From Amoebophrya sp. A120 (lineage: Eukaryota > Protista > Dinoflagellata), in assembly GCA_905178155.1 (NCBI GenBank), contig CAJINV010000006.1:3160437-3224436 (forward strand): DNA of 64,000 nt, read 5' to 3'. The notes beneath the pieces were generated by a model. The model worked only from the letters and a program-made list of their open reading frames with translations, did no database searches and was not told where the DNA came from. A program made the position numbers and the translations under genes. Of this stretch, positions 1-64,000 are shown piece by piece; the first letter of the stretch is position 1; every line of letters starts with the position of its first letter.

Positions 1-3000
1 CTGCTGCTCTAGTACTGCCCGACGGTACACGGTACAGCTACTGGAGCTCGGGCGGTACAACTACTGGCGCACCGACGGGAGGAGTACTATCCGGTGATCA
101 TGTTGCGGACGGTACTACAACTGGTGCAGCTGCTGTGTATTCACCTGGTGATCCAATCGACGAGAAGTGGGTGACACCGGCAAACGTTGACGACGCGACC
201 CTGAAGGTCGACGATGAGGATCCCCGGGCTCTGTTACTACGTGCGAAGGAGGAGGAGAAGCTGAAGGCACAGGAGCGAAAAAGACAAGAGAGAGAAGAAG
301 CGGCGCGAAAAGCTGCACAAAAAGCCGCACAAGAAGAACTGGAAAAAAAGCAGCGAATGCTGAAGTACGAAAGGGAAAAGGAGAGAAAAGAGAAACTGGA
401 GAAACAAGAAAAAGAAGAGCGCGAAAAGAAAATGCTAGAACAGCAAGAGCGGGAAAAGGAGCTGGAGCTGCAACGGGAATTAGAAAGAGAACAGGAGGAG
501 CTGCAGAGGAAGCAGGCTATGCATTTTGCAGAATTATCGTACTAATTAGGAATTATCGCAGGACAAGTTTGCGTGGCAATGGCATGAGAAGTAAACTTTG
601 TCATGCTCCTGAATTGGCTTATGAACATGAAGTGCGTAGGACATTTATCATGCGGTATTGCGATAAAAGTTAGTAGGATACTTTTGCAGTGGATACCAGC
701 GGAGATTGACCTTCAGCAACAGAAGCGCGACGCCATTCGGAGGCAGCTGGAGGAGCAGCAAAAGAAGCGAAAACTGATGACGGAGCGGGAGCAAAGGGAG
801 AATGAGGAGAAAGAGCAAGCGCGCACTGCGATGGAAAGCGCGGCGAAAGAGCGGGCGGAACGGGAAGAGCTATCTGCGAGGTTAATACAACAGGAAAAGG
901 AGCAGGAAAAAGTAGAAAAGCAGAAGCAAAAGGCGACGAAAAAGAGCACTTCAACATCTGCTCACCAGGTGTTGAAAAAAGGACAAGGAGCGGGAACTGC
1001 ATCATCTCGCCAGGAGCTGTTGAAGAAGGGAGTGGAATCTAGTAGCAGCGGTAAACTACACATCAAAAAGGCGGGCAGCAAAGTTGTCGTGTCAGCGACG
1101 ACGACTAGCGGGAGTTCATCTAGTGACCACCAAAATCTTCAAAAGGGAGGACATGATGATGATGATGGTGCACCACCTCTTCACATGGAAAAAAAGAAAC
1201 TCGTGGTCGACAAGAAGGCACTTCCGAAGAAAAAAAAGAAACCCGTGGTCGACAAGAAGTTACTTCCGAATAGTAAAAACAAGGTCAAGAAATCCGTGGT
1301 GGACAAGAAGTTGCTATCCAAGAAGGAAGTGAAGGCTCTCACAGCTGCTGCCAGGAAAAAGGTGCAGGAAGAGAAGAAGACGAAAACCAATGCAGCTTCC
1401 GGGATGAAAAACAAGAAGGGGCAACAGATGCCTGCTGCCTCTACTTCTTCCACGAGCAACCCACAACAAGTTCAACGCACTACCGATCATTCTGGGCTGT
1501 CGGACATAGGAGCGCCACCTCCATCTTCGGAGAATAGAGGAGAAGGAAAGCGAAAGCAGCAGCAGCGGCAAAATGGCAAGAAGCCGAAAGTTATGAACTG
1601 CAAAAGCATCGTACTAGTACAAATTGCGATTACAAATTTGCTCAGCATGACACATTCAACTTGTAATGCTGTTTTACCTTAGGAAGAAGATTTGTCATGC
1701 ATCATAGCGCTTACTACGAGTGCAATGTTGCTTTTGCAGAGGATAAAAGTCGAACTGCGTCAGGACGGTGTTGAACAGGAGATGAAGCTGCAGGACGAGC
1801 AGGGGCTTCAACAGCTGCAAAATGCCAAAGCGCCACCTCCATCTTCGGAGAATACGAATAGAGGAGAAGGAAATATGCGAATAAAACAGCAGCAGCGGCA
1901 AAATGGCAAGAAGCCGAAAGTCGAAGTACGACGTCAGGAGGAACATCACGACGGGCAGGAGGAGGAGAAAATCGAAATTCAGCTGGAAGAACAAAATAAT
2001 AATGCCACAGCGCTGCAAAGTAGAAAGCAAAAACTTCTGCGCCAGCAGGACCACGAAGAGAAACAGAAAAAGAAAATACAGCAGGAACAACAGAACAAGG
2101 CTAAAACGCTACTTCTCCGTCAGAATCTGAAGGCGCTGCAGCAACGACAGGAACAGGAGCAGCAACTGCGCGAAAAACTTGATGCGGAGCCAGTTTTGAT
2201 GAACCAAGGGATTGCGGGGGCAGCAGCAGCAGCAGGAGCGGAGGCGGGTTATCTGTCTTCTCCTTTTGATATAATTTCCTCTGCACAGGAGCAGGATGAA
2301 AAAGGAGATTCTCATCCGGTGATCAACAACACCTCCCGGGACGAGATGTTGAACACAATCACCCACGACGCTGCTGTTTCGTCAGCTGACCGCGACTCTT
2401 TTCGTTCCAGATCTCGACTTCGTCGTCGTCCGTTAGATCGCCAATTTTCGCGATCCCGGAGCGGACACCGAGGACGGGACGAAAGAGGAAGATCTACTGC
2501 GCATAGGTCTTCGCAGGGTGGTGCCAGCGCGGTGCAAGGAGGGGGGCAGCATTCCCACCGGCCTCGCCTGGGCAGCCGCAGTACCCCAGTTAACCAACTT
2601 TTGGCACCACCCTCGACCACCAGGAGCTGTACCACGACAGGAACAAATACGACACGGAACTACAATCATGGTCTGGCAGAAGGAGCGACAAGTAGCACGA
2701 ACACCACCAGTGGTCTACTCGTTGCGCGACAGCAAGAAGATGATCAGGATCTTTTATTTCAACGGCAGTACTACGAAAATCAACAGCACTACACAAAAAA
2801 CACTGGTGCTGCTCACGGGCACCAGGCAGCAGCTTCGTCATCCTCATTCTCTGTCGGACAACAGGAAGATGAGCCTCTTGACAGCAGTAGACAGAGAGGC
2901 GAAAGTGCAGAGTCATTTTTGGACGAGGAACAGGAACGATACTATGAGGAGCTGAATTTCAACTACGACGCAGCACAGCATGTTGCAGAGAGTCCTCGTC

Positions 3001-3353
3001 GTGCCGGGTCTTTTTTAAATGATCATCATGCTGCTCCTCCTCCTCCCCCGCCCGATAGAAATATTCATCACGCGGATCATGAAACAAGAGCCACTACGTC
3101 TAGAAACAACCACGACACCACCTCCGATCTTCATCTTCCCCGTCACAACTACAGGACCCGCACGGAGTCCTTTGACTCACGACGGCGATCACGGTCGAGA
3201 GTGCGACGAGAAGACATTGATCGGAAAAGCGACAGGCGCGGCTCGGAATTATCCGGCGGAGCAGGATCGCCCACGCCACCTCGTGCAGAGAATGCTGAGG
3301 AGGAAGGAGGAGATCCGATGCTCCGGGCGTTGGGAAACATGTACCGATTTTAG
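1..3353 (+). CDS. Gene 1 (5' end outside window): K/E/Q-rich coiled-coil and low-complexity protein; 2 non-canonical introns
   Basis: Frame open from base 3; ORFs 135/603/1692 share one frame and join after removing the elements at 518 and 1592; stop at 3353. Confidence 0.75.
518..695. mobile_element. Introner family A (degenerate)
   Basis: TATGCATTTTGCA...TTTTGCAGTGGATA; DR degenerate. Confidence 0.75.
1592..1745. mobile_element. Introner family A
   Basis: TATGAACTGCAAAA...TTTTGCAGAGGATA; DR AAAGT; empty paralogous site at ~1915-1925. Confidence 0.95.
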
Positions 3354-4998
3354 GAAAACATGAAACGACGGGCGTCGTCTACAACACCCGTGCCGTTTCA
3401 GGAACAAATAATGTACGAGGTTTTTACTAGTAGAGAAGAGCGGGAAGTTGAGAAGTGCGTCGCAGCTTCTCCTCGTCATACTACTTACGTAGAACTCGAG
3501 TTTTATCCGTATCTATTTATTCTGGAGTGGTAGTGGTCTTGTTACCAACATTTTTGGCAAAAATGTTGGTTGATGTCGCCCTTTCATTTTTATTTCGACG
3601 TCGTCTGCGAGTGCGAAAATGAAAATGTCAAAACACGACATGAATTTCATCGAACTTTCTTGATGCAACACTTCATCGTCAAAAATACGGGCACATTAAT
3701 TGTGGTCTGGCTCGCATGAAAATCAAAATTCAAGTGAGCTGCCAGTACATTTTTTCAAACGACGACTTTTTGCAGCTCCAGGTGTGAGGGCCCTTCGTTT
3801 TTTATTCAAGGAGACTCAACTACAATCTGTCTTTACTCGTCCCCACCTCAGTTAGTACTAGTAGCACTAGACAGCACCCGGCTATTCAAGTCCTTGAGTC
3901 GGAAAAAATTTTGCCATTTCTGTGTTAGTCCGATACAAAACAAAGAATGCTGTCGATGAAATGAAGGAACTCCACCAACACGACGACTATACTAACTTAT
4001 TCACGAGATGAAAACTAAGAACAAGACATGGCTCGAAAATTGGTGGCGCTACCTCTAGGCTGCGAGCGACAAACAAACTTTTGGAAGACGTACGATTTCC
4101 GAGGTTACATGGCTTGCGACATTCTTATTTTTCAAATTTTCAATTCAAGTACTACAACAGATCTACTTCATGCGAAAAAATATATACGACAACCTCAACC
4201 AGCTAGAAGATGATGAAAGGCAAATGCTACCATGGATGTCTATGACTATGTCTTCACAGCTGGTTGCCATTCGATTTCTACAACATAGAGGGCCAGATAT
4301 TAGTTGCTGCAGCTTTGCTAATTGTAATTTTGACGATCGATGTGTTGTATGTGTGCAAAAATGCGAAAAATTTCATATCCTTTTCATCTAGATAAGTAAA
4401 TCTTTGAGAAAAATCTTTGCCGGGCAGCAGAGCTAGCGTCGCTCTCTTTGCACTCGTGATTGTAGTGGTTGCGAAATTTCTCCTATACAAAGGAGACGCT
4501 TTTTTTTTATATTTGTGTTGCGAACCTCAACCTCCTGTGTGTTGCAGTATCTAGGGCCAATACCAGGAGCGAAGCCGCAAAAAATCGTTGAACTGCGAGC
4601 GACTGAAAGTCTTTCTTTCATCAAGAATCTTGTCGTGTGCAAGCTGCAACAGCAAGAATTGGAAAAATCAAAGATGAAGGTTCAGTGGTGTCGCGAGTTT
4701 TGTTGTGAGTGCAAAAAGTAAAAATCTTCGTGAGTGCGACGTCGCGTTTCATTGCAAATGATTGTCCCTAGTACTCCCTTTCGCCACTCCATTGAATCAA
4801 ATTACCACGGCGCGCCGGGTGCGTGTTTGTTTCAATCTGTAGCTTGCCGAGATGAGTAGAGGACTGACGAGAACTTTTTGTCCTACCGTTATTTTAGGTG
4901 AACTATGAAGTAGTAGAGTCAGCACATCTTCATCTTGAAGGAGCAGTGTGGTTGCTTGAAAAATTACGATTTCCTCCGGCTCAGATCGCGGAAAACCG

Positions 4999-7900
4999 AT
5001 GATGTTCGCGACCGTAGTACCGGACGCCGAGGGTGTTGCAGATCCTGTGGCACCTACAACTTTTCCCGCCGCTGTTGAGCAAGCCTTTCTAACTTCCGCG
5101 ACAGAGGTCGCTGACCCGTTGCAGCAAGAAGCAGGAATAAATCAACATGAAGAAAACTACAAGTCCGGCTCTGAAACCGAGACAAGACCACGACGACCTT
5201 CTGCTGCTTCAGGTTCTACCAATCCGCCGAAAAAGAAAAAAATCCTTCCCGCGGATGACGCAACCCTGCAGAAGTACGGCACGCCGAGCCTCGCCTCGTT
5301 GAAGAATAAGTTTTCCCTCGGAACAAAATCGTTTTCCTCCACATTATTACTCCCGCCTCACAGCGCCGGTGGAACGTCAAGCCGACTGGACTCTTCCGCC
5401 GTGGCTGGTGAACAGTATTACAACAATAAATTCCGTACCCCCTCCACCGCCGCGCCGCAGAGTGCGGGAGGAGTTTTCAACAACCATCAAAATAACGCAG
5501 CACCTATGTCCACCCGCCCTTCTTCCGCCGCGTTCGAACGACGAATGATGCAAGGACGGCGGATATGAAATGAAAAAGCATCGTACTAGTTGTATATTGC
5601 ATATACAAATTTCCTCAGCATGAGAAACAAAATTTGTAATGCAGGTTTACCTTGAGAAAAAAATTTGTAATGCATGACTGCAATACGAGTACGATAGCGA
5701 TACTGTTGCAGTGCATAACGGAAAAACAAAGACGATCTGCGTTCCGAATACAGCGATTTGTTCACGCGCTTGACGAAAATTGGAGGGAATTTTGACGTAT
5801 CCTGCGCAAAAGTATCATACTCGTACTCATTGCAAATATGCATGGCAAATGTTCTTCTCAAGGTAAAACAGCATTACAAATTGCATTTGTCTTGCTGATT
5901 GCTAATTTGTCATGCAATTTATACTAGTACGACTACGATGCTTTTGCAATTCATATGACGAAAATGTAAGACGGTCGCTAGATCCAGCTGATCATGATGT
6001 TGACGGTTTATTTCACAACTACGGTCGTGGTGGTTTTGACGCAAACCGGAGTCTACAGGAGCGGCAACTACTACACGGGAAGATGATGAACACGACGGGA
6101 GAAGAAGATCATCAAGATCTTGTTTTGAGAAATAAAACCACCAACCGTCGTCCAATCTCCGCGGTGTCGTCCAACCGATCCTCCTTACAGTTCACGACGA
6201 AGATGACATCACGAAACGCAACAGCACAACAACAGCACAACAAAACGGTTTTAAACCTGCCCTTGCCGAATCTGCGGAAAAAGTCGCCCATCCAGAAGTG
6301 GAAGCAGTACCAAATGAACAAAATGGTGAAGGACTTGCGAAAAAACGTGAAGGAGCTAGAACGCCGGTCCTCCGAGAAGAAAAAGCGGCACCGCGAGCGG
6401 GCCGCGGTCGTATGCATTGCAAACACTAGTAGAAGTAATCGCATGACAAATTTCCGTAGCATGCGAAATGGAATTATTTGTAATGGGGATGCAACTAAAG
6501 AAAGAGGTTTGTAATGCATGACTGCGATTACTGCTACTAGTCCGACACTTTTGCAATGCATAGGTCGGGGACTACGACTACTCCGACACGGAGGAAGAAT
6601 ATGAAAGTGCACAACTCCCCCTCATACTCATTTGTGTTGCATGGGCAGCAATACAACCGTCAGCAGGAATGCAGGTTTTGCATGACAAATCTGCACAGGT
6701 GGATTGTAGTGCTAGTATTACTTGGGGTCGTGCCAGAACTTGTCATGCATAATAGTGACCGGAGCGTAAATTTGGAATTGGTGTTTTGCATGAGAAATGA
6801 GAACGAGGAGGACTTGTGCACTCTCATAAGGAAAATCATGAGGAGGGACCCAAATCCGCCAGGACGCCGGTGGAGAAGTTGAAAAAGCGTTTAGATCGGC
6901 AATTTTTTCGGGACCAGGACGATTTCGAAGCGGAGATACGGATTGCAAAAATGTCTGGGTTTGGAAAAATGCCAGGTTTGGCATGCTCTGCTAGCATGAC
7001 TGTCAAGTCTGTCACGCAAGGTGCCCAAAAGCGCCACTTTTGTGTCATGCAAAAACCCAGTTTCTCATGCAGAATAGGCAACACCTAGCGACTCAAAAAC
7101 CTGTCATGCTGAGCCGTCATTTCTGGCGTTGTCTTGATTCACCAACCAGCATCACAAGTTTCCAGACCCAGACATTTTTGCAGTTGATAGGAGATTTACG
7201 AAGACAACGGCTTTCTGGCCGACGAGAACTTTTCTCACCACCTTCATGGTGCGGCGGATAAGAACAACCTCCAGGGCGTTTCGAAACAGTTGAGTTACGA
7301 CGACGGCATATGGGAGTGTCAGGATTGATGAAACCGACAAAGTTGGAATTAGTTTGTCACGTAAAATGCGAGGCACAAGGTGCCTGCCTTGCGAGGATGG
7401 CAAGTGAGGCTGTTTGTCAGCCTGTTTAGGCGGGTAGAGTAGAGCTGCCAAGGATCATGACAAACGCAGTCTTCTTTGCCCCAAACAGCATGACAGATTG
7501 CGTTTCGATGTAGTAGCCGAAATTTGTCATGCGCCGCTTCGTAATTGGGGGTCCAAGTGGTATCCATTTTATGCATGACAAACTAATTTCAACTTTGACG
7601 ATTTCGGTCCTGACACTCCCATACGGCACGTCCTCTGCCGGGTTCTCCACCTCGCGCCCAACGTCCGCCACGACAAATCAAAATACTGCCTCTCGGTATC
7701 CCACGAAAAAACTGCTTCACTGTGATGATCTTGCAAGATCTGCATCACAAGTTTGTTGCCCATGACACAGAAAATTTGCCATGCGCGCTTCCAAAGGGAA
7801 AACACCGCTAAAGAGTCGAGGTCTTGCAGGTGTGGCAAGACAAATAGTTCTGTCTTCCATTCTATGCATCACAAGTTCACTGTGAAACAGTTTTTTCTTG

Positions 7901-10900
7901 CGATACTCGGCCGGTGTCCTCCAATGTGAATTTCGGCGGTGCTCCTGGAACGAGACCACCCTCGGCCACCACCGGTGGGTATCCTGTGCAAAAGTATCGC
8001 ACTCCCTCGTATAAATGCAAATGTATAGAAGGAGAAACGGTGATCATCCGACATGATCATGGACCGAAGAAAAATCGCAGCGTGCCCTCGTGGAAAGGGT
8101 GTTTTTTTTACGGACCGCAGAAATGACACAGCTTTTCCCAGGGTGTGGCAGTGTTTATTGCGCACATTATGCGAGCAGTGCTGAAGCTGAGAAAGGCCGA
8201 CAATGGGCGGGCGCTTTTGTGACCACAGGCGCTTTGTTTTCATTGTTGTTGGACGCATGAAACCACTCCACCTACATGGACACGAGCGCCCACGCGTTTG
8301 GTTCGTCGAGCGCTCTGATCTCGGCCGGAGCGCGACGCTTGACGAGGGTCGGGCCCATAGCGTAAAGCAGGCGCGTTTGGACTGTCATCCCCCGCGTGGT
8401 GCGCGCCCAGCTTCGTGCCCCGGCCTTGCCCGCCTCCCTGCCGCGAAGGCGTCGAGGCATCGACGGGCCGGGGGCCCGGCTCATTCAAATCCAGTGGTGG
8501 CTGCCTTTTGCGTGCCGCCATCGCCCACTACATTTCGGGCAGCAAAAAAATACACGGGCGCCGGCGGAGAAACGGCGCCGCTACTTACTTGCAAAAAGCA
8601 ACGGAGGCCATGCCGTCGGTGCTGAATTTGCACCGATGGCACGACGCAGTTTGGTGAAGAGAAAGAACGCGGCGCGACTTTCGCGCCCCCGCTTCAGCAT
8701 GTTGAAGACGATGAAGCACCTTGCTGCGCGGCCGCGGCAGCTGCGGCGTCTCTCTCATAGTCGGCGCAGGCAGGGACCGCGATAGACACTCGCTATGCCA
8801 TCACGCAGGGCCCCGGCCTAGCGCCTGCCAAGAAAGAACAAAAGCAGCGCCGCCGCATATAAATTTCGCCCGGCGACGAAGCGCATGCCCCGCCCGGCGC
8901 AGCCGTGGAGCCGGCTCACCTGAGAAGGGCGCAGAACTCCCAAAGCAGCCACAGCGCTGCACCGCCTCGAGCCTGGCTGCCAGTTCCTGCACCGGCCTCG
9001 GGCCCCTAACTGTGAGCGGCTGCCCCACTTGTAATTGGCAGGCCCAGCCTGGAGCCAGGGCTTCCGGGCCTTCAAGGAACTGGCGCAGAGCATACTATAG
9101 CAAGGCGCTGCTTCTTCATCTTCTTCGACAACGTGCTGCATTTCTCGCAAAGAAACGCGTTGTCGGAAATGAGTGCCGGAAGACTACAGAAAAACAATGA
9201 TAATGAGTGTCGAATCACTGATCATGAAAAAAAAAGACCCTAGTTGAATGCTGATCATCAAATCAAAAAAATCGTTTGATGATCAGCATTGCCACGAGCT
9301 AACAAAGGTGATCATCAAATCAAAAAAGTCGTTTGATGATCAGCATTCAGCTAGGGTCTTTTTGTTTCATGATCAGTGATTCGACTCTCATTTAGATCAG
9401 TGCTTTTCTGTAGTCTTCCGACACTCATTTCCGACAACGCGTTTCTTTGAGAGAAATGCAGCACGTTGTCGAAGAAGATGAAGAAGCAGCGCCATGCTAT
9501 AGTATGCTCTGCGCCAGTTCCTTGAAGGCCCGGAAGCCCTGGCTCCAGGCTGGGCCTGCAAATTACAAGTGGGGCAGCCGCTCACAGTTAGGGCCCGAGG
9601 CCGGTGCAGGAACTGGCAGCCAGGCTCGAGGCGGTGCAGCGCTGTGGCTGCTTTGGGGGTTCTGCGCTCTTCTCAGGTGAGCCGGCTCCGCGGCTGCGCC
9701 GGGCGTGGCATGCGCTTCGTCGCCGGGTGAAGTTTATATATATTTGGCGGCGCTGCTTTTGTTCTCTCTTGGCAGGCGCTAGGCCGGGGCCCTGCGTGAT
9801 GGCATAGCGAGTGTTTATCGCGGTCCGTGCCTGCGCCGACTATGAGAGACTCGCCGCAGGAGCTGCCGCGGCCGCGCAGCAAGGTGCCTCGCCGTCTTCA
9901 TGTTGAAGCCGGGGCGCGAAAGTCGCGCCGCGTTCTTTCTCTTCACCAAACTGCGTCGCGCCGTCGGTGCAAATTAAGAACCGACGGCATGGCCTCCGTT
10001 GCTTGTTGCTAGTACNNNNNNNNNNNNNNNNNNNNNNNNNNNNNNNNNNNNNNNNNNNNNNNNNNNNNNNNNNNNNNNNNNNNNNNNNNNNNNNNNNNNN
10101 NNNNNNNNNNNNNNNCGTCGCCGCCTGTCGTTTCGCCTCTCCTTTCGCCTGTCGTTTCGCCTGTCCTTTCGCCTGTCGTTTCGCCTGTCGTTTCACCTCT
10201 CGCCGCCACCTGTCGCCGTCACCTCTCGCCGTCGCCTCTCGTCTGGGGTATGTGATTACAGAACCCGGAAGTCAAGCAATATAAATATTAATCTTGTTCC
10301 CAAGGTAAATCTGCATTACAAATTTTAGTTCTCATGCTGAGAGTGTAATGCATTATATACGAATGCGATGCTTTTGCAATTCATAGTGGGACGATGAATC
10401 GTCCAATTTCTGCGTTGAGCGCAGCTGCAAAAGGCGGACCATCAACGACGAATAATCGGCCGCTCTCCGCGGTGAGCGCGAAATCAGTGCAATTCAAGGA
10501 CCAGTCGCAAATAACTTTCGGCCACAACATTTCTTCTTCTTCGGGAGAGCAGTTTCTAGAGGGGCCTGGTGGACCACAGCATGACAACTTTATTTCCGAC
10601 CATGAACATGATCCCGCGAACGACGCGAGGCTGCAGAAGCAGTTGAAGAACGAGAAACTGGGGATCAGCGACGCGGGGGGAAAACGCGGTCCGGTCTTGC
10701 TCGGGCTAGCAGAGGCTTTAATTACCTCTGCCGTTACGCCGAACCCCAGCCGCCCGGGGTCGGCGGTTCTTTTCGGAAACGCGAGCTCGATGCATGAACT
10801 GCAAAAGTATCGCACTCGTATAGAATGCATTACAAATTTTCTCCGCATGAGAAACAAAATTTGTCATGCTGATTTACCTTTAAACAAAATATTTGCAATG

Positions 10901-15057: not shown

Positions 15058-15165
15058 TAAGTAGTAGAGTTCCCGGCGAAGAAGTTCTCTCTCCCATTAG
15101 GAGAAAGAGATGAATAAATAGCACGACTGATTTTTTATTTGTAAGATCGTTTTCATCTGAAACTG

Positions 15166-22000: not shown

Positions 22001-23290
22001 CAATAACTAACTTCTTCGTTTAGCAGCACTGCGACTCTTATCAAGTGTAAAAATGTCTGGGTCTGGAAGAGTGCATGTTTGTCATGCTTGTCTGGCATGA
22101 CTCTCAAATCTGTCATGCACGTTACCCAAGAGCGCCATTTTTCTGTCATGTAGAAACGCAGTCTGTCATGCAGAATAAGCAACACCTAGAAGCAGCTCAG
22201 AAACTTGTCATGCTGAGCGAGCACCTGCGGCCTCCTCATGATACGCCACCCAGCATCACAAGTTTCCAGACTCAGGCACTTTTGCATTTGATAACTCTAA
22301 GAACACTAGTATCACGACAGGTGGCTGCCTCCTGCAAGTCACCCAGGACGGCGCCGTTGTCGAGCGCGATGCGGAAAAGGATCGAGAGCTCATTCCCCGA
22401 TCGGTTAGGATGGCGCTGGCGAAGAAACCGATCAACCCAGTTCACGAACGTCTTTCGCTCGACGAGGGAAGTTTTGGGATCTGCCCGAAAACGGGAAGGA
22501 AGTCCAGGGCGATGAAAGCGCATGACCACATGGTAGAGTAGGCGAACAAAGGCTGTGTTGTAGTTTAAGTTTTCGCAACATTTGTGATGAGTAAGCGTGC
22601 CAGCTATCATGTCGCAAACGCAGTTGTACCTCGCATGACAAATTACCTGTTGATCTGCTCGCCAAGGTAAAAGGCCAGTGGGGCGGACTTTACGGCTTTT
22701 CCTTTCTCTTCAGGTATGAAAGTGCACAACTTGAACCCCTCCCCCTGATTTGTCGTGCAAAATGCCGCGCCGACGTCCTGCCGGTAGATCATCTCCGATG
22801 TCATGCAAAATGCCCAATCCAATTGCTGCGTTCTTGTGGGACTGTTTGCATGACAAATTCCGGAAGCGGCCCAAAGCCAAACACTACTAGCACTCGGAGC
22901 GTGAACTCGTCATGTACAGGCTCCACGTGTGTTGATGGCGCTTGTATTGCTGTTCATGCCAGACATTTCAGGAGGAAGGGGAGTTGTGCACTCTCATATC
23001 AGCCTGACCTGGATTATGAAGTATTCCCTCGCCAGTCAAACCGATGTCACGGTAGTGACGGATCCGAAGCGGAGAATATCTGGGTTCTACAGCGTATCAA
23101 ACATAAAAGTGTTAGTGGTACTTCTACTTCTACACGCATGCTGTGCAATAAAAATTCTTGTCGCGGGGGCTTTATTACAACTTGCCTTACCGAAAAGCAA
23201 GAACACCATACGAGAAGACAAATTTCGCTTTAACGCTAACACTTTTTGGCATGATACCCCGCGCACCAGGAAGAGCTGGATAGGATGTAA
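19059..23290 (+). CDS. Gene 3: hypothetical protein, possibly mitochondrial membrane (S/R/A-rich N-terminus, C-terminal hydrophobic segment)
   Basis: Reconstructed end GQWGGLYGFSFLF-LTWIMKYSLASQTDVTVVTDPKRRISGFYSAHQEELDRM*; localisation is inference. Confidence 0.6.
19997..20377. mobile_element. Introner family F (degenerate)
   Basis: TACCCATGGGTAAAAACTTCCCC...GGGGAAGACGTTTTACACAGGATA; DR unclear. Confidence 0.72.
20507..20735. mobile_element. Introner family B
   Basis: TIRs; DR AAGCC/AAGCT. Confidence 0.88.
20810..21115. mobile_element. Introner family G-like
   Basis: TATGAAAGCCTCAGG...CCTGAGGGTTTCATA; DR ACGTT. Confidence 0.9.
21140..21487. mobile_element. Introner family G
   Basis: TIRs; DR GTTGG. 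Confidence 0.88.
22039..22293. mobile_element. Introner family C
   Basis: TIRs; DR ACTCT. Confidence 0.9.
22715..22998. mobile_element. Introner family B
   Basis: TIRs; DR TCAGG/TCAGC. Confidence 0.88.
23095..23256. mobile_element. Introner family E (degenerate)
   Basis: TATCAAACATAAAAGTGTTAG...CTAACACTTTTTGGCATGATA; DR CAGCG/CCCCG. Confidence 0.72.
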
Positions 23291-53119: not shown

Positions 53120-56100
53120 ATGGTCGCGCGAACAACCGCGGTTCTACGTTCCAATGCAGCCGGAATTGTAACAGGAGCCGGAACAGCAACTGGCTCAACC
53201 TCTTCGTCTGCAAATGCGGTAATGCTTGCGACGCGTAAAATAAGTCCGGCTTCCCCCTCAAGAACCTCCCAGCAGCAACTCCACCGAGCCGTGCACCGTC
53301 CGGAGGCCTTGCTAAACCCGTACTTCCTACAGAAGGAGAAACTACAGCTGAATCCGAGGCAGAAAGTTCTGTGGACGCATAATCCAGCAACCGGTGCTGG
53401 TGGTTCGATCCCCGCCGAAGTAAATGGCGCTGGTGGAGGCGGTGCCACCAGCACAGCTTCTAGTACTTCCAGCAGTAGCTCCTCTTCTTCCACACCCTCC
53501 GTCTCAAACCTGGATTTAGCTCTGCTCACCAATCGGGGCCTGCGGAAGCAAACCATGGAAAATATCGTGAATCTGCTCGGGTCCGACCTGGGCAGGCTAC
53601 TGCTTTCCATCCCGAAAAACATCGGCCCGGAGCGGGCGTTCGTGGCGTACAAGCGGTTTTTGGTAAACAAGATCAACTCGGAGGCCTCGGTTGACAGCCC
53701 AGGTGGAGCTCTTTCTGCCCTTCAACAAAGCAAATTGAAAGCGGTAGAAAGTTATGCATTGCAAAAGGAAAAGCATCGTACTAGTAGTTTAAATTGCATC
53801 ACAAATTTTGGCAAGGAGGAAAGTGGAATCTGTAATGCTGTTTTGTCACAGGAAGAACATTTGTCATGCATATTTGCCATTTTGTACGAGTGCGATAGTA
53901 CTTTTGGACAGGATAAAAGTATGACGTTTCAAACTTTCGAGGAAGAATACCGGAAGATTATGCCGATGGTGATATCCTGAGCAAAAACATCCCCACCCCA
54001 GAGTCAAGATGGGGATCTCGCAACACAAATCGAGAAGTTTTGGGAGTCAAGCATGACAAGTTCGTCTCTGTATTGTAGTGCAGGATAGCAAATAGAGCCG
54101 CAATGCAAATCCATCTACTCATCTTGTTTAGAGCATTACAAAGTCCAAAACAAGATTGAAAATTCCTCTCACGGGGATGCGCATTACAAATCTTCCTGTG
54201 ACTGGAAATCTGCATGACAAATCTGGGGTGGGGACGTTTTTACTCAGGATAGGTCAAGTGGGAACGACAGAAACGGGTCGATCGGAACCACCGGAAACGA
54301 CTCAAGCCGCATCTGCTGCGTCGAGGAAATCAGCATTTGAAAATCAACGAAACCGCGTTCGTGACGCCAGAATTTGCCGAGGTAAATGATTTTTACGAAA
54401 AGGGCGTGAATCACTTAGGCGGTGGCGGTACTAGCAGTTCAGCATCCACCACTGGCGGTTCGTCGTATTCGAAATGTGGTGTGTGCCGAAGCTCTCTATC
54501 GCAAGAAAAAACTGTTTCACTGTATTAAACTTGTGATGCGGAGAATGCAACACAGACGCATTTGTCTTGCGAGTACACATGTAAGGCATTGGGTTTATCA
54601 ACGTGTTTTCCCTTATAAAGTACGCATAGCAAGTTTCCTTCGTCATGTGTAATGTAATGCAAAACTTGTAATGCAAAACTGGCAAAATCCTTACTTTACA
54701 GTGAGACAGCTTTTTCTCGCGATGCTCTCTGCTCTTCGACTACTATCTAGCAGAAAGCTACGCACAGCGGTACAATGCTGCAGATGCGATTTTAGAAGAG
54801 CAGCAGCAGGACAATATCACAGCGCAGTCGACGTTTATTAGTTCTTCCGTCACAGCTATCCTGTGCAAAAGTATCCTACTCGTACTAATTGCGTTATATG
54901 CATTACAAGTCTTTTTCTTAAGGCAAATCCGCATTACAAATTTAATTTGTGATGCCAAGTCAGTTATTTGTAATGCAAGTTATACTAGTACGATGCTTGT
55001 GCAATGCATAATAGGCAAGACAACTTCAGCTTCAAGCTCTTCCTTCCAGAAAAATATCGCAGCCGCTTTCCGGGACGAGTATTTGGATAGTGTGCGGCCG
55101 ATATCCAATTCAAATATGTCTGGGTCTGGAAGAATGCAAGTTTGTCATGCTTGTCTCACATGCCTCTTGCGCCTGTAATGCGTGAGCCGGAAAATAAGAG
55201 CCTCTTGCCTGTCATGCAAAAATGTAGTTTGTCATGCGGAAAGCGAAACACAAAGGAGCCCAGAAACTTGTCATGCATGGCTGCTTATTGCAATGTCCCC
55301 ACAATTCATAAATTAGCATCACAAGTTTCCAGACGTTCAGAGATATTTGCAATGCATAGCCGGTGCTCGGGAATGAACTGTCCGACTGGAAAACGCCGGC
55401 CATGTATGCAAGAGAAATAAAACTGTGTAATAGTTGTCGTTGTGTAACTCTGTAATGCAAAGCATGCAACACAGCCACACTTGTCTCATGCTAGCCAGCC
55501 ACGAGATCCTATTTCGTCTGATGTTATGTACTAGCTGCGCATGACAGGCTTTCTGTGTCATGCAGAACAGATTTGTCATGCTGTCATTCTCATTCCACAA
55601 GAGGACCTGCTATAAGTACACTAACGCAGGTTTATTCCTGCTGCATATCATGATGAAGAAATCTATTCTCACCAAGATCCTGAACTCTTTCACGAGGAAC
55701 AAAATCGAGAAATCCGTTGTGGAAAAAATTGTCGACAATGCAGCGATGAAAAGCATGATTTCCGGCCGTTTAACCGCGGACCTCCCACCAGAGGTCCTTG
55801 AGCCGGTGTTCTCTTTCAACGGGAACCAAAGCTGGAGCTTCGATCCCCGGGAAAGGGTGCGAATTCAGTTGGAAAATGTAGAGGGGAAGTTGGACGAGTT
55901 ATGAACTGCAAAAGCACCGTACTTAGTAGTGATTGCAAGACAAATTTCCTCAGCATTAGAAGTGGAATTTGTAATGCGAGTTGCCCTTAGCATCTGGATT
56001 TGTAATGCATAACTGCAATTAGTACGAGAACGAGTACGATGCTTTTGCATTGGATACGAATTACTGGCTGACGATTTGTGTCATCATGATGCACAGGAGA

Positions 56101-56844
56101 TGACGAGCAGCAGGACTGCAACTTCTACCAAAAATGATAATGATCCTCATCATCTTCATCGCGGCGTAGAAGAATTAGCACCTGTCACCACCCCAAACAG
56201 CACCACCTTCCCCTCCCTCTCCCCGGAAACCCGTGGCGAATTGCTCGGCAGCTACAAGTTCGGGAAGCCGCAGGTGAAATCGGAACGAGTCCTCAATACG
56301 CTTCGTTACCCGACGTTGCAAAGCGTGGCGAATCGGTTACCGGAGGACAAAGCCTACCGCAGTCACGTCTGGTCGGTGATTAACATTCTGGAACGGCAGA
56401 AAGGCTGGACGTTCGCGGACAAAATTCGGGCGGTGCAGACTTTGAAAGAGGTGTACTACAATCTGAAGAAGTCCAGCTACTGGCGCATATCCTGTGCAAC
56501 AGTATCGTAAATTCGTACTAATTGCAATCTTGCATGACAATAAATCTCCCTCCCCAAAGGCGACTCAGCATTACAAATGTCACTTCTCAAGGCGGGAAAA
56601 TTTGTGATGCAATTTTTACGTAGTACGATAGTTTTGCAATGCATAGTGCCGGCGGATCGACAAGAAGTTACCTTTAATGTGTCCGTCGAAACGGGAGCGA
56701 AAGAAGTACGGGCACGGACACAAGTCGAAATACGTGCAGCAGGTGAATGGGGGAAGTATGGACAAGAGTTACAAGCGCCGAGTGTTGTTCCGGAGGTATC
56801 GGAGCTTGTGTCGCCTGCCTTGCAAAAGGATTGACTTGGATTGA
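53120..56844 (+). CDS. Gene 6: hypothetical protein, possible mitochondrial targeting N-terminus; ~8 introns
   Basis: Globular-looking exon LRYPTLQSVANRLPEDKAYRSHVWSVINILERQKGW; last junction gives WRRRIDKKLPLM..., stop 56842-44. Confidence 0.7.
53753..53915. mobile_element. Introner family A (in-frame, stop-free)
   Basis: TIRs; DR AAAGT. Confidence 0.88.
53973..54251. mobile_element. Introner family F
   Basis: TATCCTGAGCAAAAACATCCCCACCCCAGA...TCTGGGGTGGGGACGTTTTTACTCAGGATA; DR GGTGA/GGTCA. Confidence 0.92.
54497..54724. mobile_element. Introner family D (opposite orientation to 7697 and 44329)
   Basis: TIRs (ends GATG); DR CTCTC. Confidence 0.88.
54857..55010. mobile_element. Introner family A
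   Basis: TIRs; DR ACAGC/ATAGG. Confidence 0.84.
55102..55358. mobile_element. Introner family C
   Basis: TIRs; DR GCCGA/GCCGG. Confidence 0.88.
55900..56056. mobile_element. Introner family A
   Basis: TIRs; DR CGAGT/CGAAT. Confidence 0.88.
56488..56645. mobile_element. Introner family A
   Basis: TIRs; DR GCGCA/GTGCC. Confidence 0.84.
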
Positions 56845-57774: not shown

Positions 57775-60700
57775 ATGGTTGGCACAACTACAACAATATC
57801 CGCCCAGCCCGGCGACGGAAACAAGGAAAGTATTGAAGTGAAATCTGCAAACAAAAGAGCTCCTCCTTCTGTGTCGAAGAAAGTGAAGAACAAGAAGAAG
57901 ATCAAGTGGGAGCAGCACAACATGAAGATGAACAAGGATAATGAAGCCTCTGAAGCTAGCGCTGCTCCTGGTACAACTTCCAATAGCGCGGGTCCTGCCG
58001 CACCGTCGTCCTCTGCCTCCTCTTCCGAGGATGTTGTTTCCTCTTCCGAGGACTTCCACTTCGTCGGAGTGCAGCCAACAGCTACAACGATAGCTGCAGC
58101 AGACCAGCAGCACCAGCACGAAGAAGTAAAAAACGACCAAACTAGTCGTGCTGACCACAACTCTTTCCGCCCGCCCATGAGCAACCAGTTGCACCAAGAC
58201 GTGGTCGACGATGGTACCACGAAAAGCGGTATTTATTGGACCGTCAGCGTTGGGTTAATTCTGCTCCTATCAAATGTAAAAGTGTCTGGGTCTGGAAAGT
58301 TGGAACTTGTGATGCCAGCTTTGGAGTTTAAAAAAATCTGTATTGCATGACCAGCAAGAAGAGCCACATTTGGGCTACGCGAGGAGGGCATTTGTCATGC
58401 GGAAATGGCATCAGGAAGCTTTCCAAAAATCTGTGATGCTGGGTCATGCATTACAAGCATCATGGGTCATGCCAGACAAGCATGACAACCCTTCCGTTCT
58501 TCCAGACCCAGACATTTTTACATTTGATAGCTCCCGCTTTTCCTATACGGGGTGATTCTGTTTGGCGTCAACATGTATCAACTGTAAAAGTGTCTGGGTC
58601 TGGAAGGTTGAAACTTGTGATGCTAACTTTGGACTCTAAAAAATTCTGTATTGCATGACCAGCAAGAGGAGTCCGGTTTGTGCTACGCGTGGAGGGCATT
58701 TGTCATGCGAAATAGGCATCAGGAAGGCCTCTGAAAATCTGTGATGCTAAGGCTTCCATGACAGACATTCTGTGTCATGCAAAAACAGCATAACAAATTT
58801 CGGGTTCTTCCAGACCCAGACATTTTTACATTTGATAACATGCAACGATCCGCGGTTCAGAGTCATGGTACTGATGTGAACGTCCGCGGTAAACCGATGA
58901 ATTATGGGACTCTCAAATGTTACATTCTCAACTGGAACTGTTACATGATTTGTCATGCAAAATTGCCATCAGTATCTGTGTGATAAAGCTGCATCGCATG
59001 ACAAATCCAAATTCTCCCAGCGCCAAAGAGGCGAAGAAACTGCGCCAGATCTGTCATGCAAGACGCGCAGGCCCCCCCTTTCACTTTTGCCATTCTTGCA
59101 TCACAAATTTATGTTGTAACAGTTGAGAGTGTAACAGTTGAGAACGCCATATGAATACGGGCTTTCTTGCAGCGTCTTCCCCGACGGAACGGAAGTTCCT
59201 CGCTCCGACGAAAAGTACCGCTACCACCATTGAGAAGAAAAAGGGGTATGTGGTTCTTGAGGACCACTGGCGGACGACGGGCAAGGGTGAAGCGGCAAGA
59301 GCTGTTGCACATGATGATCACCACGTCGTGTTGCCACGGCAAAAGGAACAAAAGCCCGTCTCGTCCGACGGAAAAAGCGCCCCTGGAGGTGCTGGTCATC
59401 ATGCTGGTCCTGATCATGGCACCGGACGCGGAGCCGAGGAAGATGATTCCGAGTCAGAAGACGTGGCGAAAGAGGACCATGCTTCATCGAAACATTCCGA
59501 CCATGATGATGAAAGGGACGATCATGTTGTTGTCCACCCTCCACGTCCTTCTGCATCGAAGATGAAAACCACGAAAACGACACCCACGATCTCGCAAATT
59601 CCCGGACCGGCACCAGGTTCAGGACCTGCTCCAGCTGCTTCTGCTGCTGTGGAAATCGCGGCCTTGTCTGAGGATGGTGGACAGCAAGACGAAGATCGCG
59701 GGAACTCGAACTCGCCGCAGCCCTCGCCTGGCGAGAATGAGATGAAAGCCGCTTCGACGTTTTTGGAGGAGGAGGAAGGGAGTGATGAAAGTGAAAGTGT
59801 AAGTGAAGCCAGTACTGCTGTCGATGATGGTGCGGGAGACGAAGACCTGATCTATCCAGGAAAAAACACCCATCCCCATCCAATTTGTCATGCAAAACAT
59901 GCATAAAATCCGCCATTTGTTATGCATGCAATGGATGGGGATGGTTGTTTTTTCCTGGATATGATCATGGATGATTACACGACCGGCAAAATGAATTCCA
60001 AGTCCTCCGCAGCTCCGGTTGAAACCGAGGAATTTGAAGATGAAAATCAAAATGACCAGCCCGTGGGCGGTGAAATGCAAATGCAAGACAAGCATGGTGC
60101 TGTCTCTCGGTCTTCGTCTTCGGACGTTGCTTTCACGATGGATTTTCTGGAAGTTGGACAGGGGACTGCTGCTGTTCCACCGCGACCAGTACAAGCAGGA
60201 GTTCCATCTCGTTTCGTCGTGCCGGGTTCACCGCCAGTGTACCCGGCAGTCACTGCGCATGTCCCGCCAGGAGAAACACCACCGGGGCAGGAGCCGTCAC
60301 TACATCATCATACGCCGCCACCTTCTGCTCCTTCTGAGAAGGAGCAGAAGTCCCGCCTGAAAGTCAAAGTCACGGAGAAAGACCTCCAACAACACGCTCC
60401 GTTGCAAGTCGTGTACTACTGCAAATACCGAGACGGGGAAACCGACACCATTGCGGACCGTGCTGCACGCCCGAAAAATGCGGAAGCGCCACAAGCCGAA
60501 ACCGTGGAGGACTATTTGAACAAAGGCAGGTCGGCGATGAGCCCGCGCGCGTCGAAGGAGGAATGTATGAGAAAGTGCACGGGCTACCTAAAATGCGGCG
60601 TCTTTGCGTCGGTACCCTTACCGCAGCCCGACGACTCCGGGAGCACGGTGATGTGCTTTTTCGGGGACAAAACCCACGCGAACACACTCGACGCGGACGC

Positions 60701-61757
60701 TGCAGGGTGGGAAATTTCCTGTGTGGCGGCCTCCGGTACTGGAGAGGGCAGCGGCCTGACCGAGGCGAATTTGAGGAGTCTGGCTGGTGAAGGGGGCGAC
60801 AGCTCCAGGACCTCGGGGAGGAATGCGATGTCTGATGCTGATCGTTATCCCGTGCAAAAACGCTATGACATTGCCTGGCTTGCTCTTTTTTGTCAACTTG
60901 CGAAGGAGAATGGGTCTTCGTACTACAAAAGCAAAACGGCAGCCTTCTACAAATAAACCTGCTGTACATTTTGTCTCTACTTTATTTTTTGCCGCGAGCT
61001 GCGCTACGGCCACAAATGCGAATCAAAAGACAATTTGTATTTCATAGATACCTCGTCCAATTTTGTATAGTGATGGCCTCCTCCTGTATTGCGGACGCGA
61101 GTTGGAATTAAAGATGCTGATAACTCTGACATAAGTGTTTTTGCCTTGCATAGAGCTTCCACGGTGGCTTCAGAGCAGGATCTTGAAGGTGATGATGATC
61201 TTGATGCCCTCGACGAAGCAGATGAGTATGAAGAGGATGCAGGAGCGCATGCTCCTCTCGTTAAGACTCCTGAAGAAAATCAAACGGATGCGCAGCACAC
61301 CAGCTCCGCTGTGGCCGGAGCCGTTGAGCGGCACGACACCTGCCGCGGCTCGCACTGGTGGTCCCGATCGCACTGCGAGTGCTTGATGTACGACGCTGGA
61401 GATTCCCAAGGCTTCGTTCCGGTGAATGTCGCAGAAGGAAACAAGCACGGCCGCGAAACTACCATGTGTGACCGGGACGCGAAAATCGGGTCCGTTTGTG
61501 GCACAGGAATGAAGAGGAACAAAGAGGCTGGCGAGGGGAGGTGTGTCTTCAAATGTGCTTCGCGGCATTGCAAGTGCATCAAACACGGCGACCACACTGA
61601 ATACAAAGACGGGAATGCGAATTGCAAAAACTTATGGACCGCAATTCAAAAGCGCACGGTCGCGTACTGGAACATCAATCGGACTCGGACAGCTAGTGAA
61701 GAATTGGTGCATGATGAGGATGGCCAAGTTTTCGTATTCGAGTTTCCAAAAGCTTAA
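57775..61757 (+). CDS. Gene 7: single-pass membrane protein with acidic low-complexity and Cys-rich (PAN/apple-like) segments
   Basis: Hydrophobic helix IYWTVSVGLILLLPLFLYGVILFGVNM forms only after removing elements; SKEECMRKCTGYLKCGVF..MCFF cysteine spacing. Confidence 0.65.
58268..58529. mobile_element. Introner family C
   Basis: Perfect-looking ~26-bp TIR; DR GCTCC. Confidence 0.94.
58576..58837. mobile_element. Introner family C
   Basis: TIRs; DR ACATG. Confidence 0.94.
58903..59151. mobile_element. Introner family I
   Basis: TATGGGACTCTCAAATGTTACATTCTCAACTG...CAGTTGAGAGTGTAACAGTTGAGAACGCCATA; DR TGAAT. Confidence 0.88.
59853..59961. mobile_element. Minimal 109-bp introner, family J
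   Basis: ~30-bp near-perfect TIR; DR TGATC. Confidence 0.93.
60846..61152. mobile_element. Degenerate introner
   Basis: TATCCCGTGCAAAAACGCTATG...CATAAGTGTTTTTGCCTTGCATA; DR unclear. Confidence 0.55.
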
Positions 61758-61899
61758 GCTTTGGCTTAGTATTTGAGGACCAAAATAACAAAGCCACGAC
61801 GAATCGGATTCATCGTGGCGCAGGCACTGCACGTCAATTCACAGAAGATGCTGAACTACTTACCATGTGAACTGGTGCTTATCTTCATGTCATTAACAT

Positions 61900-64000
61900 T
61901 GTGATGCTTGTTACGTGAGCTTCATCTTGAATTTTTTACATGTGAGAAGTACGCGATCTGCTTTTGCCCAGGATGCAAGAAATGGGACGGTAGGTATTGT
62001 GGTTCCAAAGGAGTTGACGCGACCTGTCGTGCCAAGCCGCCACTCGGGGGCAACGAAATTTGCGTCAAGATGCTATGCAGTGCAACTAGGTCTCGGTCGG
62101 ACGAGGGGTGGAAGAACTTAAGTGAGTATATTACTTGTCTGCAACTTCTCGAAAATCTGTGTTGCATAACCGACAAGAAGAGTGCAGCTTCGTTTGTCAT
62201 GCACAAATGAGTTTCGCAATTTGCTTTTCCTTTTGCAGTACGCAATGTGCATCAGTACGAGAGACGGCCCTCTTCTTGAATGAAGCTTGTCATGCTTGTC
62301 TGGTTGTAATTCAAATCTCTGCAACATCACGAGTTCTTTCCAGACCCAGACGTATTTGCAGTGGATAGGCCCTCAATGCTGTCGATTCAGTCAACCCATT
62401 CGCCGCGATCCCTCCTCCGAATTTGAATGTCTATCCGCCAGAAAAGCACAGCCATACCTGAAAAAGAAACGAATTTGCGTTGCGGGGGGTTTTAGCTAAT
62501 GCTCAGCATGACAAACTGAAACTTTTTTGGTTGTATGTAGTTCTAGAAGTAGTCCTAGACCTCATGACCCAGGAAGACTACGACTCGGTTCTGCATGACA
62601 GAAAATAAATTTCTCTGTCTCTAGTGGTGTGGTCTGGTCTCCGCTTTCGCAGAGTGGCGCCAAGAATTTGCTAGCACCGCAACTTCATTTCCTTCCTGGT
62701 ATAAGTATGGCTGTATTTTTTTGTCGGATAATCCTCTCGACCCAGTCAAGCGTTCTGTGCAAGGCGCTGTGGTGGGACAGGAAATGGGCCAGGATGCGCA
62801 GGATGAGTTTCTGCAGTTGGCTGCCCTGGTATGCAATGCAAGTACACAACACGACACTTCTCCCCCGTAGTTCCCGAGATTGTATTGCAGACGAAGCACC
62901 ATCGAGAGAAAAAAAATGGCTCTCCTCAGCAGGATTGGGTGACGAGATTTACAACAACAAGGCATATTAGGTCATCAAGACGGTAGTAGCCAATTTCGAT
63001 TCGCTCTGAGTACCAGCTGCTTCGTGTTTACGTACAGAAGCGGCACCCACAGCGAAGCAATTCCATTCATGTGTATGAAGACATCAAACTCACAGTGGTC
63101 ATCTTCTACGCGGTGGTGTAGTACTCAGTTGCATTGCATACCCGGATTCCACCCAATTGGTTAAAATCGCGGGGCAAAAGAGCGGACAAGAACTGTACTT
63201 CGACGACGCACTAAACCGGGTGCAGCACGCCGTAAACATTGGGTATCTGCAGCGGTTGCAGAACTACCTCTACGTGCCTCTTCGCGGATGGATCATTGCC
63301 GAGGGATTCTTACCGCCCAAACTGGTGCAAGTTCTCAACCTGGCAGTTGAGGGTGCCATGACGTACATCGCCGTGGTGGCCTACGGCAGTGTGTATCCAA
63401 TGCAAAAGTTGTATGACGCTCGTACTTCTAAATCTAGTACAATATCGTGATGACGCATGACAGATTTTCCTTCTATAGCTGATTCTGCATGACAAACTCC
63501 ATTCTCCCTTCTCACGATGAAATTTGTGGTGCAAAACGTTGCGTACGAGCGCGATTAAGGATGTTTTTGCAATGCATACCCTGCCTGCCATCGCGATTCC
63601 CCTGGCCATTTTTCGCGCTGCCGAGTTCTATTGCTCGAGCCAGGAGGAGGAAAAAGCGAGCACGGAGGAGGGAGAAGACGCTGCAGTCAAGAAGAGCGGC
63701 GGATTGAGCCGGAAGTCGTTCTGTAAACTGCTCAACACAGCCAAAAACAAGTTTCCGGGGACCACCCACGCAGTGTACGGCGTCATGAACGCGCTCAACT
63801 TTCTCCTAAGCATTGCAAAAGTAGCGTACTTCTAGTGGGAATTGCATTACAAATTTTATTATCAGAGCCAAAAATTGAATTTGTACATGCTGATTCAGCT
63901 AGTAAAGTAGATTTGTCATCATGCGGATGCGAGGCTGCAATTACTACGACTGCGATAGTACTTTTGCAGTGCATATCTCCTTACCGGCAGCAACCTCGTG
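61900..64000 (+). CDS. Cys-rich and hydrophobic exons: continuation of gene 7 or a further gene; runs off the window
   Basis: Exon-like segments CFCPGCKKWDGRYC, QCCRFSQP, YLYVPLRGWII..AMTYIAVVAYGSV, IPLAIFRAAEFYC separated by elements. Confidence 0.5.
62074..62367. mobile_element. Introner family C (degenerate)
   Basis: 3' TIR CCAGACCCAGACGTATTTGCAGTGGATA; DR poor. Confidence 0.7.
63394..63578. mobile_element. Introner family A (degenerate)
   Basis: TATCCAATGCAAAA...TTTTGCAATGCATA; DR poor. Confidence 0.7.
63807..63975. mobile_element. Introner family A
   Basis: TAAGCATTGCAAAA...TTTTGCAGTGCATA; DR TCTCC. Confidence 0.88.

Follow-up and report, generated by a model that had tools for sequence, protein, structure and literature searches.

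Introduction

The dinoflagellate Amoebophrya sp. A120 carries introner elements with inverted repeats that start with TAT and direct repeats of 3-5 nt, and more than 60% of its introns are non-canonical (Farhat et al, 2021; PMC7789003; published work is cited here and below as far as its openly accessible text goes). The phenomenon is therefore already known from that report, which in its accessible text leaves the position of the intron border unknown and gives no clear splice signature. Here, we analyse a window of 64,000 nucleotides of the A120 genome (contig CAJINV010000006.1, positions 3,160,437 to 3,224,436), 40% of which is made up of 94 such elements, and propose that these are removed in one fixed register relative to their ends. 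The elements are the published A120 introner elements, a class whose occurrence in this strain is not new, and they share with them the organism, the TAT inverted repeats, the direct repeats at exon borders, the hairpins and the many families. What is added here is the single register, four invariant positions (U at +2, A at +3, A at -7 and U at -6 of the intron), a duplication of strictly 5 bp and a common internal motif. We found no statement of the register rule in the openly readable literature searched, including PMC9860276, PMC11453091, PMC12005148 and PMC12787238, and regard it as new.

Several other systems resemble this one in part. The nonconventional introns of Euglena (PMC12501133, PMC11282704) and introns of hemistasiid diplonemids (PMC12621601) likewise have an origin resembling miniature inverted-repeat transposable elements (MITEs), arbitrary terminal bases and complementary triplets at fixed spacers, and they coexist with GT-AG introns. 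Euglena, however, uses CDG/CH'G triplets with spacers of 3 and 5-6 nt, whereas the elements here carry UAY/AUA with spacers of 1 and 4 nt; excision as circles, by a machinery reported as unknown, is a feature of Euglena. The non-canonical introns of Fritillaria borealis (PMC13326754) are also MITE-derived and non-GT-AG, and are reported to need the U2-type spliceosome; they prefer AG-AC and AG-AT ends, the geometry of the terminal pair is thought to matter, and U1 is kept, whereas terminal bases are free here and U1 has not been found. Introners of Micromonas, Aureococcus and Symbiodiniaceae are DNA-transposon introns with splice sites partly within the target duplication (PMC9860276), but they carry or co-opt GY/AG and need suitable sites, which the elements described here do not. 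Finally, IS3EU/GingerRoot transposons share the TA..TA termini, with a duplication that is usually 6 bp instead of 5 bp (PMC10045372).

Results

Deleting each element together with five further nucleotides, along with eight GT-AG introns, yields seven plus-strand open reading frames (ORFs) of 518-2076 aa that contain 90 of the 94 elements, whereas deleting three, four, six or seven further nucleotides leaves fragments only, containing 21-31 elements. A sequence-only reading of this DNA had claimed that more than 80 TAT...ATA elements with terminal inverted repeats (TIRs) and 5-bp direct repeats run through all genes and that removal of an element with one repeat restores the frame, and both claims hold. 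Single-exon protein searches yielded the matching annotated proteins: three A120 proteins (P0002, P0006 and P0007) map residue for residue on genes 4, 3 and 6, in line with the non-canonical introns of Amoebophrya that the same reading had cited (Farhat et al, 2021), and a fourth, P0009, corresponds to gene 7 (Table 1). The 67 introns of these four mapped proteins comprise 58 removed elements and nine GT-AG introns, so that element introns pervade the genes without being their only kind. The annotated proteins are a proxy only, because the A120 gene models were built from BLAT-aligned transcripts (Farhat et al, 2021; PMC7789003).

Where exactly does the cut fall? A perfect repeat conceals the junction, and a diverged repeat allows it to be placed. 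Among the 58 mapped elements 22 are informative in this sense, and cuts after repeat base 0, 1, 2, 3, 4 and 5 are compatible with 3, 5, 7, 16, 22 and 15 of them, respectively; if cuts were random, the probability that all 22 sites admit one given cut would be 6e-8. Introns starting with TA (cut at the element start, 15/22 sites) or ending with TA (cut at the element end, 3/22 sites) were rejected. Two introns, those of elements 39095 and 61633, are decisive on their own (Table 1). At 61633, a cut after base 5 creates an in-frame TAA stop, an upper bound independent of the annotation; this was the only one of ten rows in the stop-codon test on diverged repeats whose frame is known as coding. 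Lower bounds come from the AT5.2 and A25 orthologues, which require a cut at base 4 or later at 25982 and at base 3 or later at 28469, and from RNA-like contigs, which require base 3 or later at 47222 and base 4 or later at 60846, the last bound assuming that joints are reported leftmost, as elsewhere in that joint table. All nine predominant A120 motifs in Table S4 of Farhat et al (PMC7789003) have T at +2, and none begins or ends with TA. For strain A25, TT donors combined with TTA-starting repeats would imply U at +2 and A at +3 as well.

We infer that the intron has the form N-UAY(G/C)...(G/C)AUA-NNNN, cut one base before TAT and four bases after ATA. Its first base and its last four would derive from the duplicated target, where any base appears to be accepted, and all 16 combinations of first and last base occur. 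The two offsets, 1 and 4, add up to the length of the 5-bp duplication, and TAT is what each end shows when read inward, so that the exon would be restored whatever the site and orientation of the insertion. In this register GT-AG ends are found in 1 of 94 elements, and AT-AC ends of the U12 type in 1 of 58 mapped elements. Nearby cryptic GT-AG sites, one of the outcomes that the sequence-only reading had named as fatal to it, were rejected as the real splice sites, since a GT/GC-AG pair at any equal shift (-8 to +11) is available in just 11 of 91 elements. A drift toward GT/AG was not seen, with G at +1 in 23/94 elements and AG at the end in 11/91; in a second public assembly (JACKZZ01, loci L001-L167, 543 kb), G stands at +1 in 96 of 279 oriented elements. 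The earlier statement that the elements share no splice dinucleotide is thus right for GT and AG, and fails once the cut is placed, as U at +2 and A at +3 are then common to them.

The four positions U+2, A+3, A-7 and U-6 are unchanged in all 58 mapped elements (0/232 differences), whereas the repeats of the same elements differ at 52/290 sites, indicating that the ends have been under selection after insertion. The ends present complementary triplets, UAY at +2 to +4 and AUA at -7 to -5. Because seven of the nine GT-AG introns in the window begin with GTAY, the elements can be said to supply the local donor minus its G. In the window and the second assembly together, changes from T are seen 13 times at position +4 (10 of them to C, which breaks the pair) and changes from A twice at its partner -7 (p=0.007). 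At -5, the window has two changes, each to G with a U:G pair retained. The fourth terminal position cannot pair, being G-G or C-C, in 40 of the 91 elements of the window and in 117 of the 279 oriented ones from the second assembly. All three real T>C changes at +2 are preceded by G and so resemble GC donors, the mirror change being mostly followed by C; this pattern is strand-symmetric and is therefore not used as evidence.

Contigs of four sequencing runs were placed on positions 41500-61400, X1 being DNA and X3-X6 presumed RNA; the raw RNA run X9 gave 3 reads only, and the joint table of X1 is dominated by joints between different element copies. One X3 contig (record 9) skips 48372..48653, in the base-4 register, a length of 282 nt that equals the 277-nt element plus five. 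Further X3 skips of 267 nt at 49351, 280 nt at 51014 and 114 nt at 59853 again equal the element plus five, and a 100-nt remainder is consistent, by length, with exact removal of 58268, 58576 and 58903. Between genes, at 52788-53451, X3 has zero cover. Contigs of the DNA run X1 cross the entire elements 47222, 56488 and 60846 gap-free at an even depth of 24-38. At the tested sites the elements are thus kept in DNA and are absent, with five further nucleotides, from RNA-like contigs; together with the mapped proteins this agrees with the earlier proposal that MITE-like insertions are removed precisely at the RNA level without GT-AG. Gene 6 has little or no X3 cover while its neighbours are about 76-92 deep, contig depth being a poor measure of expression.

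A long hairpin does not seem to be required for removal. The second terminal pair has a predicted probability below 0.1 in 21 of 89 elements, and four elements (60846, 61633, 39095 and 55102) lack a predicted fold (z -0.8 to +0.7) and have terminal pair probabilities of at most 0.02. These z-scores are rough (eight shuffles per element, 20 C), and the fold of 62432 included one nucleotide too many at one end. Even so, the mapped proteins lack all four elements, and wherever the register can be resolved it is unchanged, which argues that the hairpin is dispensable. Structure-guided removal, as the sequence-only reading had it, is not supported in the form of a long hairpin; as a short paired triplet it is a serious rival to the reading we prefer. 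The sequence at fixed offsets (U+2, A+3, A-7, U-6) looks more important than the stem.

The set of elements was assembled by two scans. The strict scan demanded TAT...ATA, a perfect 5-bp repeat and a score of at least 8 for the inverted repeats; it found 41 elements in the window and 0-1 in each of ten shuffled controls. Under relaxed criteria there were 90 candidates, and three shuffled controls had 15-22 weak ones apiece. From these 90, six were dropped (3998, 8168, 35938, 36659, 39990 and 40331, all outside the element families), one mis-paired call was resolved into three, and five were added by inspection; three later additions came from a mapped protein (two) and from inspection (one). 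The direct repeat is 5 bp long: it is exact in 49 of 91 elements, repeat identity is 87% at length 5 and 20-31% at lengths 2-4 and 6-9, and an exact 6-bp repeat occurs in none of the 91. Element size is 109-381 nt in 89/94, and eight multi-copy families account for 70/91 elements. All seven genes lie on the plus strand, and the families occur in both orientations relative to them, except two 2-member pairs, one of which is same-sense. Short and non-coding, with TIRs, a target duplication of fixed length and many copies, the elements of Amoebophrya sp. A120 have the properties of MITEs; they are non-autonomous DNA transposons acting as introns.

JACKZZ01 contains copies of these families with identities of up to 94%, and its loci hold at least 318 elements, at least 262 of them with perfect repeats, as counted by a finder that demanded at least 4/5 matches. 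The AT5.2 orthologue P0001 is 96% identical to P0002 over 374 aa, and the introns of AT5 are reported to be almost all canonical (PMC7789003), which points to a lineage-restricted invasion. In a relative's predicted protein, P0003, the sequence is uninterrupted through the 26635 site and the alignment ends at the GT-AG intron 27119, which suggests an empty element site at the former and a shared older intron at the latter.

Pfam confirms the two domains recognised from sequence, the tubulin-tyrosine-ligase (TTL) domain of gene 4 and the RluA domain of gene 5 (Table 1). Within gene 4, element 24302-24451 lies in the first TTL codons and its last base remakes ATG, so that both forms begin Met-Trp-Trp. 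In gene 3, two of the elements do not bear out the earlier reading. Element 22039, which had been put forward as a target for confirmation, lies inside an ordinary GT-AG intron of the annotated protein and is therefore not shown to be a stand-alone intron, and element 23095 is read through in P0006. The annotated C-terminus of P0006 (22533-23294) also includes a doubtful GT-AG intron. The true stop of gene 3 is probably near 22541, which would place elements 22715 and 23095 in the 3' untranslated region (UTR). Element 22715 is inserted at TCAG and has GT-AG ends in the inferred register.

Table 1. Genes, elements and introns of the window.
Feature	Coordinates	Strand	Description
Gene 1	3..3350	+	ORF 1002 aa after removal; 5' end beyond window
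Gene 1 elements	518-695, 1592-1745
Gene 2	4960..15040	+	ORF at least 1231 aa after removal
Gene 2 elements	5564-5717, 5798-5955, 6411-6562, 6600-6828, 6937-7189, 7309-7623, 7697-7905, 7980-10385, 10793-10946, 11580-11757, 12329-12495, 12544-13279, 13627-13927, 14403-14572, 14641-14876		7980-10385 with nested insert and N gap
Gene 2 putative GT-AG intron	about 14041-14231
Gene 3	19059..23294	+	Annotated A120 protein P0006 (CAD7954000.1)
Gene 3 elements	19997-20377, 20507-20735, 20810-21115, 21140-21487, 21609-21819, 22039-22293, 22715-22998, 23095-23256		22039 within GT-AG intron; 23095 read through in annotation
Gene 3 GT-AG intron	21883..22320	+	Encloses element 22039
Gene 4	24260..39336	+	TTL-like protein P0002 (CAD7954002.1); PF03133, E 1e-85
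Gene 4 elements	24302-24451, 24525-24706, 24765-25081, 25366-25522, 25621-25878, 25982-26170, 26234-26571, 26635-26994, 27362-28422, 28469-28738, 28857-29078, 29374-29641, 29727-30092, 30191-30313, 30371-30628, 30897-31069, 31122-31380, 31436-31587, 31678-31932, 32031-32169, 32271-32431, 32620-32938, 33625-33898, 34004-34273, 34648-34800, 34865-35158, 35207-35359, 35521-35675, 37292-37553, 37663-37822, 37920-38076, 38454-38721, 38781-39032, 39095-39269
Gene 4 GT-AG introns	25115-25306, 27119-27289, 29120-29278, 30684-30790, 33378-33574, 35780-37227, 38222-38365	+
Element intron	25981..26174	+	Repeats ACTAC/ATTGC; cut at base 4 or later; AT5.2 and A25 orthologues concur
Decisive element intron	39094..39273	+	Repeats TGAGT/TCACC; solely base-4 cut possible
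Gene 5	41649..52352	+	ORF 2076 aa; RluA-type pseudouridine synthase domain (PF00849)
Gene 5 elements	41764-42033, 42314-42621, 42666-43613, 43677-43912, 44329-44529, 44754-45040, 45194-45338, 45405-45554, 46006-46267, 46450-46598, 46744-46954, 47222-47403, 48373-48649, 49351-49612, 51014-51288, 51805-52037
Gene 6	53120..56841	+	Annotated A120 protein P0007
Gene 6 elements	53753-53915, 53973-54251, 54497-54724, 54857-55010, 55102-55358, 55405-55647, 55900-56056, 56488-56645
Gene 7	57775..64000	+	Protein P0009 (100% match); extends beyond window end
Gene 7 elements	58268-58529, 58576-58837, 58903-59151, 59853-59961, 60846-61152, 61633-61975, 62074-62367, 62432-62730, 62830-63140, 63394-63578, 63807-63975
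Degenerate element intron	60845..61156	+	RNA-like contig departs from genome after 60844 (repeat base 4)
Decisive element intron	61632..61979	+	Repeats AAACT/CAAGA; solely base-4 cut possible
Short GT-AG introns with GCAT[GTC]ACA	22533-22666, 25115-25306, 27119-27289, 29120-29278, 30684-30790

The motif GCAT[GTC]ACA or its complement occurs 11.6 times per kb in the elements and is present in 84 of 88 short ones, in unrelated families alike. It also occurs in short GT-AG introns, at 4.5 per kb and in 5 of 7 introns (0.1 expected), and has 0 occurrences in exons (7.6 kb) and between genes (7.8 kb). Apart from 35780, the motif-bearing GT-AG introns resemble the element library only around the motif. 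The motif may be either a repeat for transposase binding that survives in decayed copies or a signal that marks introns; since it is absent from the removed elements 60846, 62830 and 30191, it is not required for removal. The GT-AG intron 35780-37227 encloses the inner part of a family-1 element, the ends of which are missing, and a 1.3-kb insert with inverted ends of its own (35883-35900 / 37196-37213), and is possibly an element intron converted to a canonical one.

No transposase was found among 94 of the 136 long ORFs of the fetched second-assembly loci, nor in two ORFs of window inserts, and the elements had no match in viral contigs. A120 introners with TIRs and integrase-like ORFs have been reported (PMC12130899), which fits the integrase-like transposases of IS3EU/GingerRoot (PMC10045372); kinship with the latter is only a lead. 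Inside element 7980-10385, a 1.4-kb near-perfect palindrome (8586-10014, arms 87-97% complementary) adjoins a 100-N gap and may represent a fold-back element or result from misassembly. Between genes, 15133-17540 is a 2.4-kb GC-rich insert with 10-12 nt tandem repeats and with direct repeats of about 30 nt at its flanks. Tandem arrays nested in 27362-28422 look related to this insert, another insert lies in 42666-43613, and one ORF tested among these gave no Pfam match.

Discussion

What removes the elements from the transcript? The reading we prefer, with confidence about evenly balanced, is that a relaxed U2-type spliceosome removes them from pre-mRNA at fixed offsets, using A(-7) as the branch point. 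U+2, A+3 and Y+4 would be read as a donor missing only its G, the invariant A at -7 would act as branch nucleotide, and the 3' junction would be set by the distance from this A instead of by an AG. The hairpin may help to bring the ends together and would not be needed for removal. Branch points at fixed short distances are described for Yarrowia and Trichomonas (-6 and -8, counted from the printed consensus; PMC2483917). In A120, U2, U4, U5 and U6 and 83 of 89 spliceosomal proteins are kept, and the minor small nuclear RNAs (snRNAs) are reported absent (PMC7789003).

A number of observations weigh against this reading, beginning with the fact that the spliceosomal step is deduced from the signals at the ends. 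By the same rough z-scores, 81 of 89 elements fold better than their shuffles (z below -2; median z -6.1), and in 60 of 89 the second terminal pair is predicted, which would mask the donor as well as the putative branch A. Of the seven upper limits placed on the cut, six come from annotated proteins and not from reads. HISAT2, from which Table S4 derives, may favour donor-like placements. One short X6 contig crosses element 51805 unspliced. The GT-AG introns do not show a fixed branch A, with A at -7 in 4 of 9, and in the largest family the context of A(-7) is a poor match to the U2 branch consensus. Among the 67 mapped introns there is no hybrid with one GT or AG end and one element end. The asymmetry between +4 and -7 is 7 vs 2 of 279 in the second assembly alone (p=0.18), where element orientation is inferred by a procedure that was correct in 80 of 85 window tests, and a strand-biased mutation process could mimic it. 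The freedom of the terminal bases, covering all 16 pairs, is broader than in Fritillaria, and U1 snRNA was not found in A120 according to the accessible text of PMC7789003.

Many of these observations are what one would expect if the same register were served by separate machinery, an explanation that we judge possible and somewhat on the improbable side. Here, a paired UAY/AUA triplet with spacers of 1 and 4 nt would be recognised much as in Euglena, by a non-spliceosomal or second system such as a duplex-cutting nuclease with a ligase, and circles would be released. The Euglena code has a like form, 5'-N3 CDG...CH'G N5-6, and absence of hybrid introns was taken there as a sign of separate machineries (PMC12501133); the strong folds, the full set of terminal combinations, the lack of hybrids, the missing U1 and the two -5 changes that keep a U:G pair all agree with it. 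Nonetheless, changes that break the third pair outnumber those at its partner by 13 to 2, position 4 is unpaired in a large share of elements in both assemblies, the second pair is improbable in 21 of 89, and unstructured degenerate elements are removed all the same. In addition, the U+2/A+3/Y+4 register matches the GT-AG donors of the organism itself. More specifically, A120 might possess another splicing code, blind to GT/AG and run by machinery of its own. It would read the UAY/AUA pair with a 1+4 ruler that matches the 5-bp duplication, which would make each insertion, in whichever orientation, a complete intron from the outset, and GCAT[GTC]ACA would mark both kinds of intron in a lineage for which U1 has not been found. 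This proposal strikes us as tentative and rather doubtful.

A fixed register created by the annotation pipeline, with true junctions that shift within the repeat or lie at cryptic sites close by, is highly improbable. Most constraints do come from gene models on BLAT-aligned transcripts, and the legend of Fig. 3 in Farhat et al describes the sites as variable relative to the hairpin (PMC7789003). Against this, orthologues, RNA-like contigs and the stop codon bracket the cut at base 4 without the annotation, cryptic pairs are as scarce as described above, and random cuts would hardly have left all 22 sites compatible with one position. The TA-Y ends resemble those of ciliate internal eliminated sequences, rare excision from DNA could escape notice in contigs, and X3 is only presumed to be RNA. 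Excision from DNA in expressing cells is nonetheless scarcely credible, with X1 DNA contigs colinear across whole elements at even depth and X3 lacking cover between genes while skipping elements; so are pseudogenes, given intact ORFs and a TTL protein so close to its AT5.2 orthologue.

In conclusion, the fixed register specifies which base is the first of the intron and which the last, offers a candidate nucleotide for the branch and singles out four invariant positions, and it would allow gene finders to model element introns. Offsets that sum to the target duplication, together with a signal at both ends, would explain how tens of thousands of insertions can be harmless. Either outcome would be notable for our understanding of intron recognition: a spliceosome blind to both terminal dinucleotides, or a second, Euglena-like form of splicing in an unrelated lineage.

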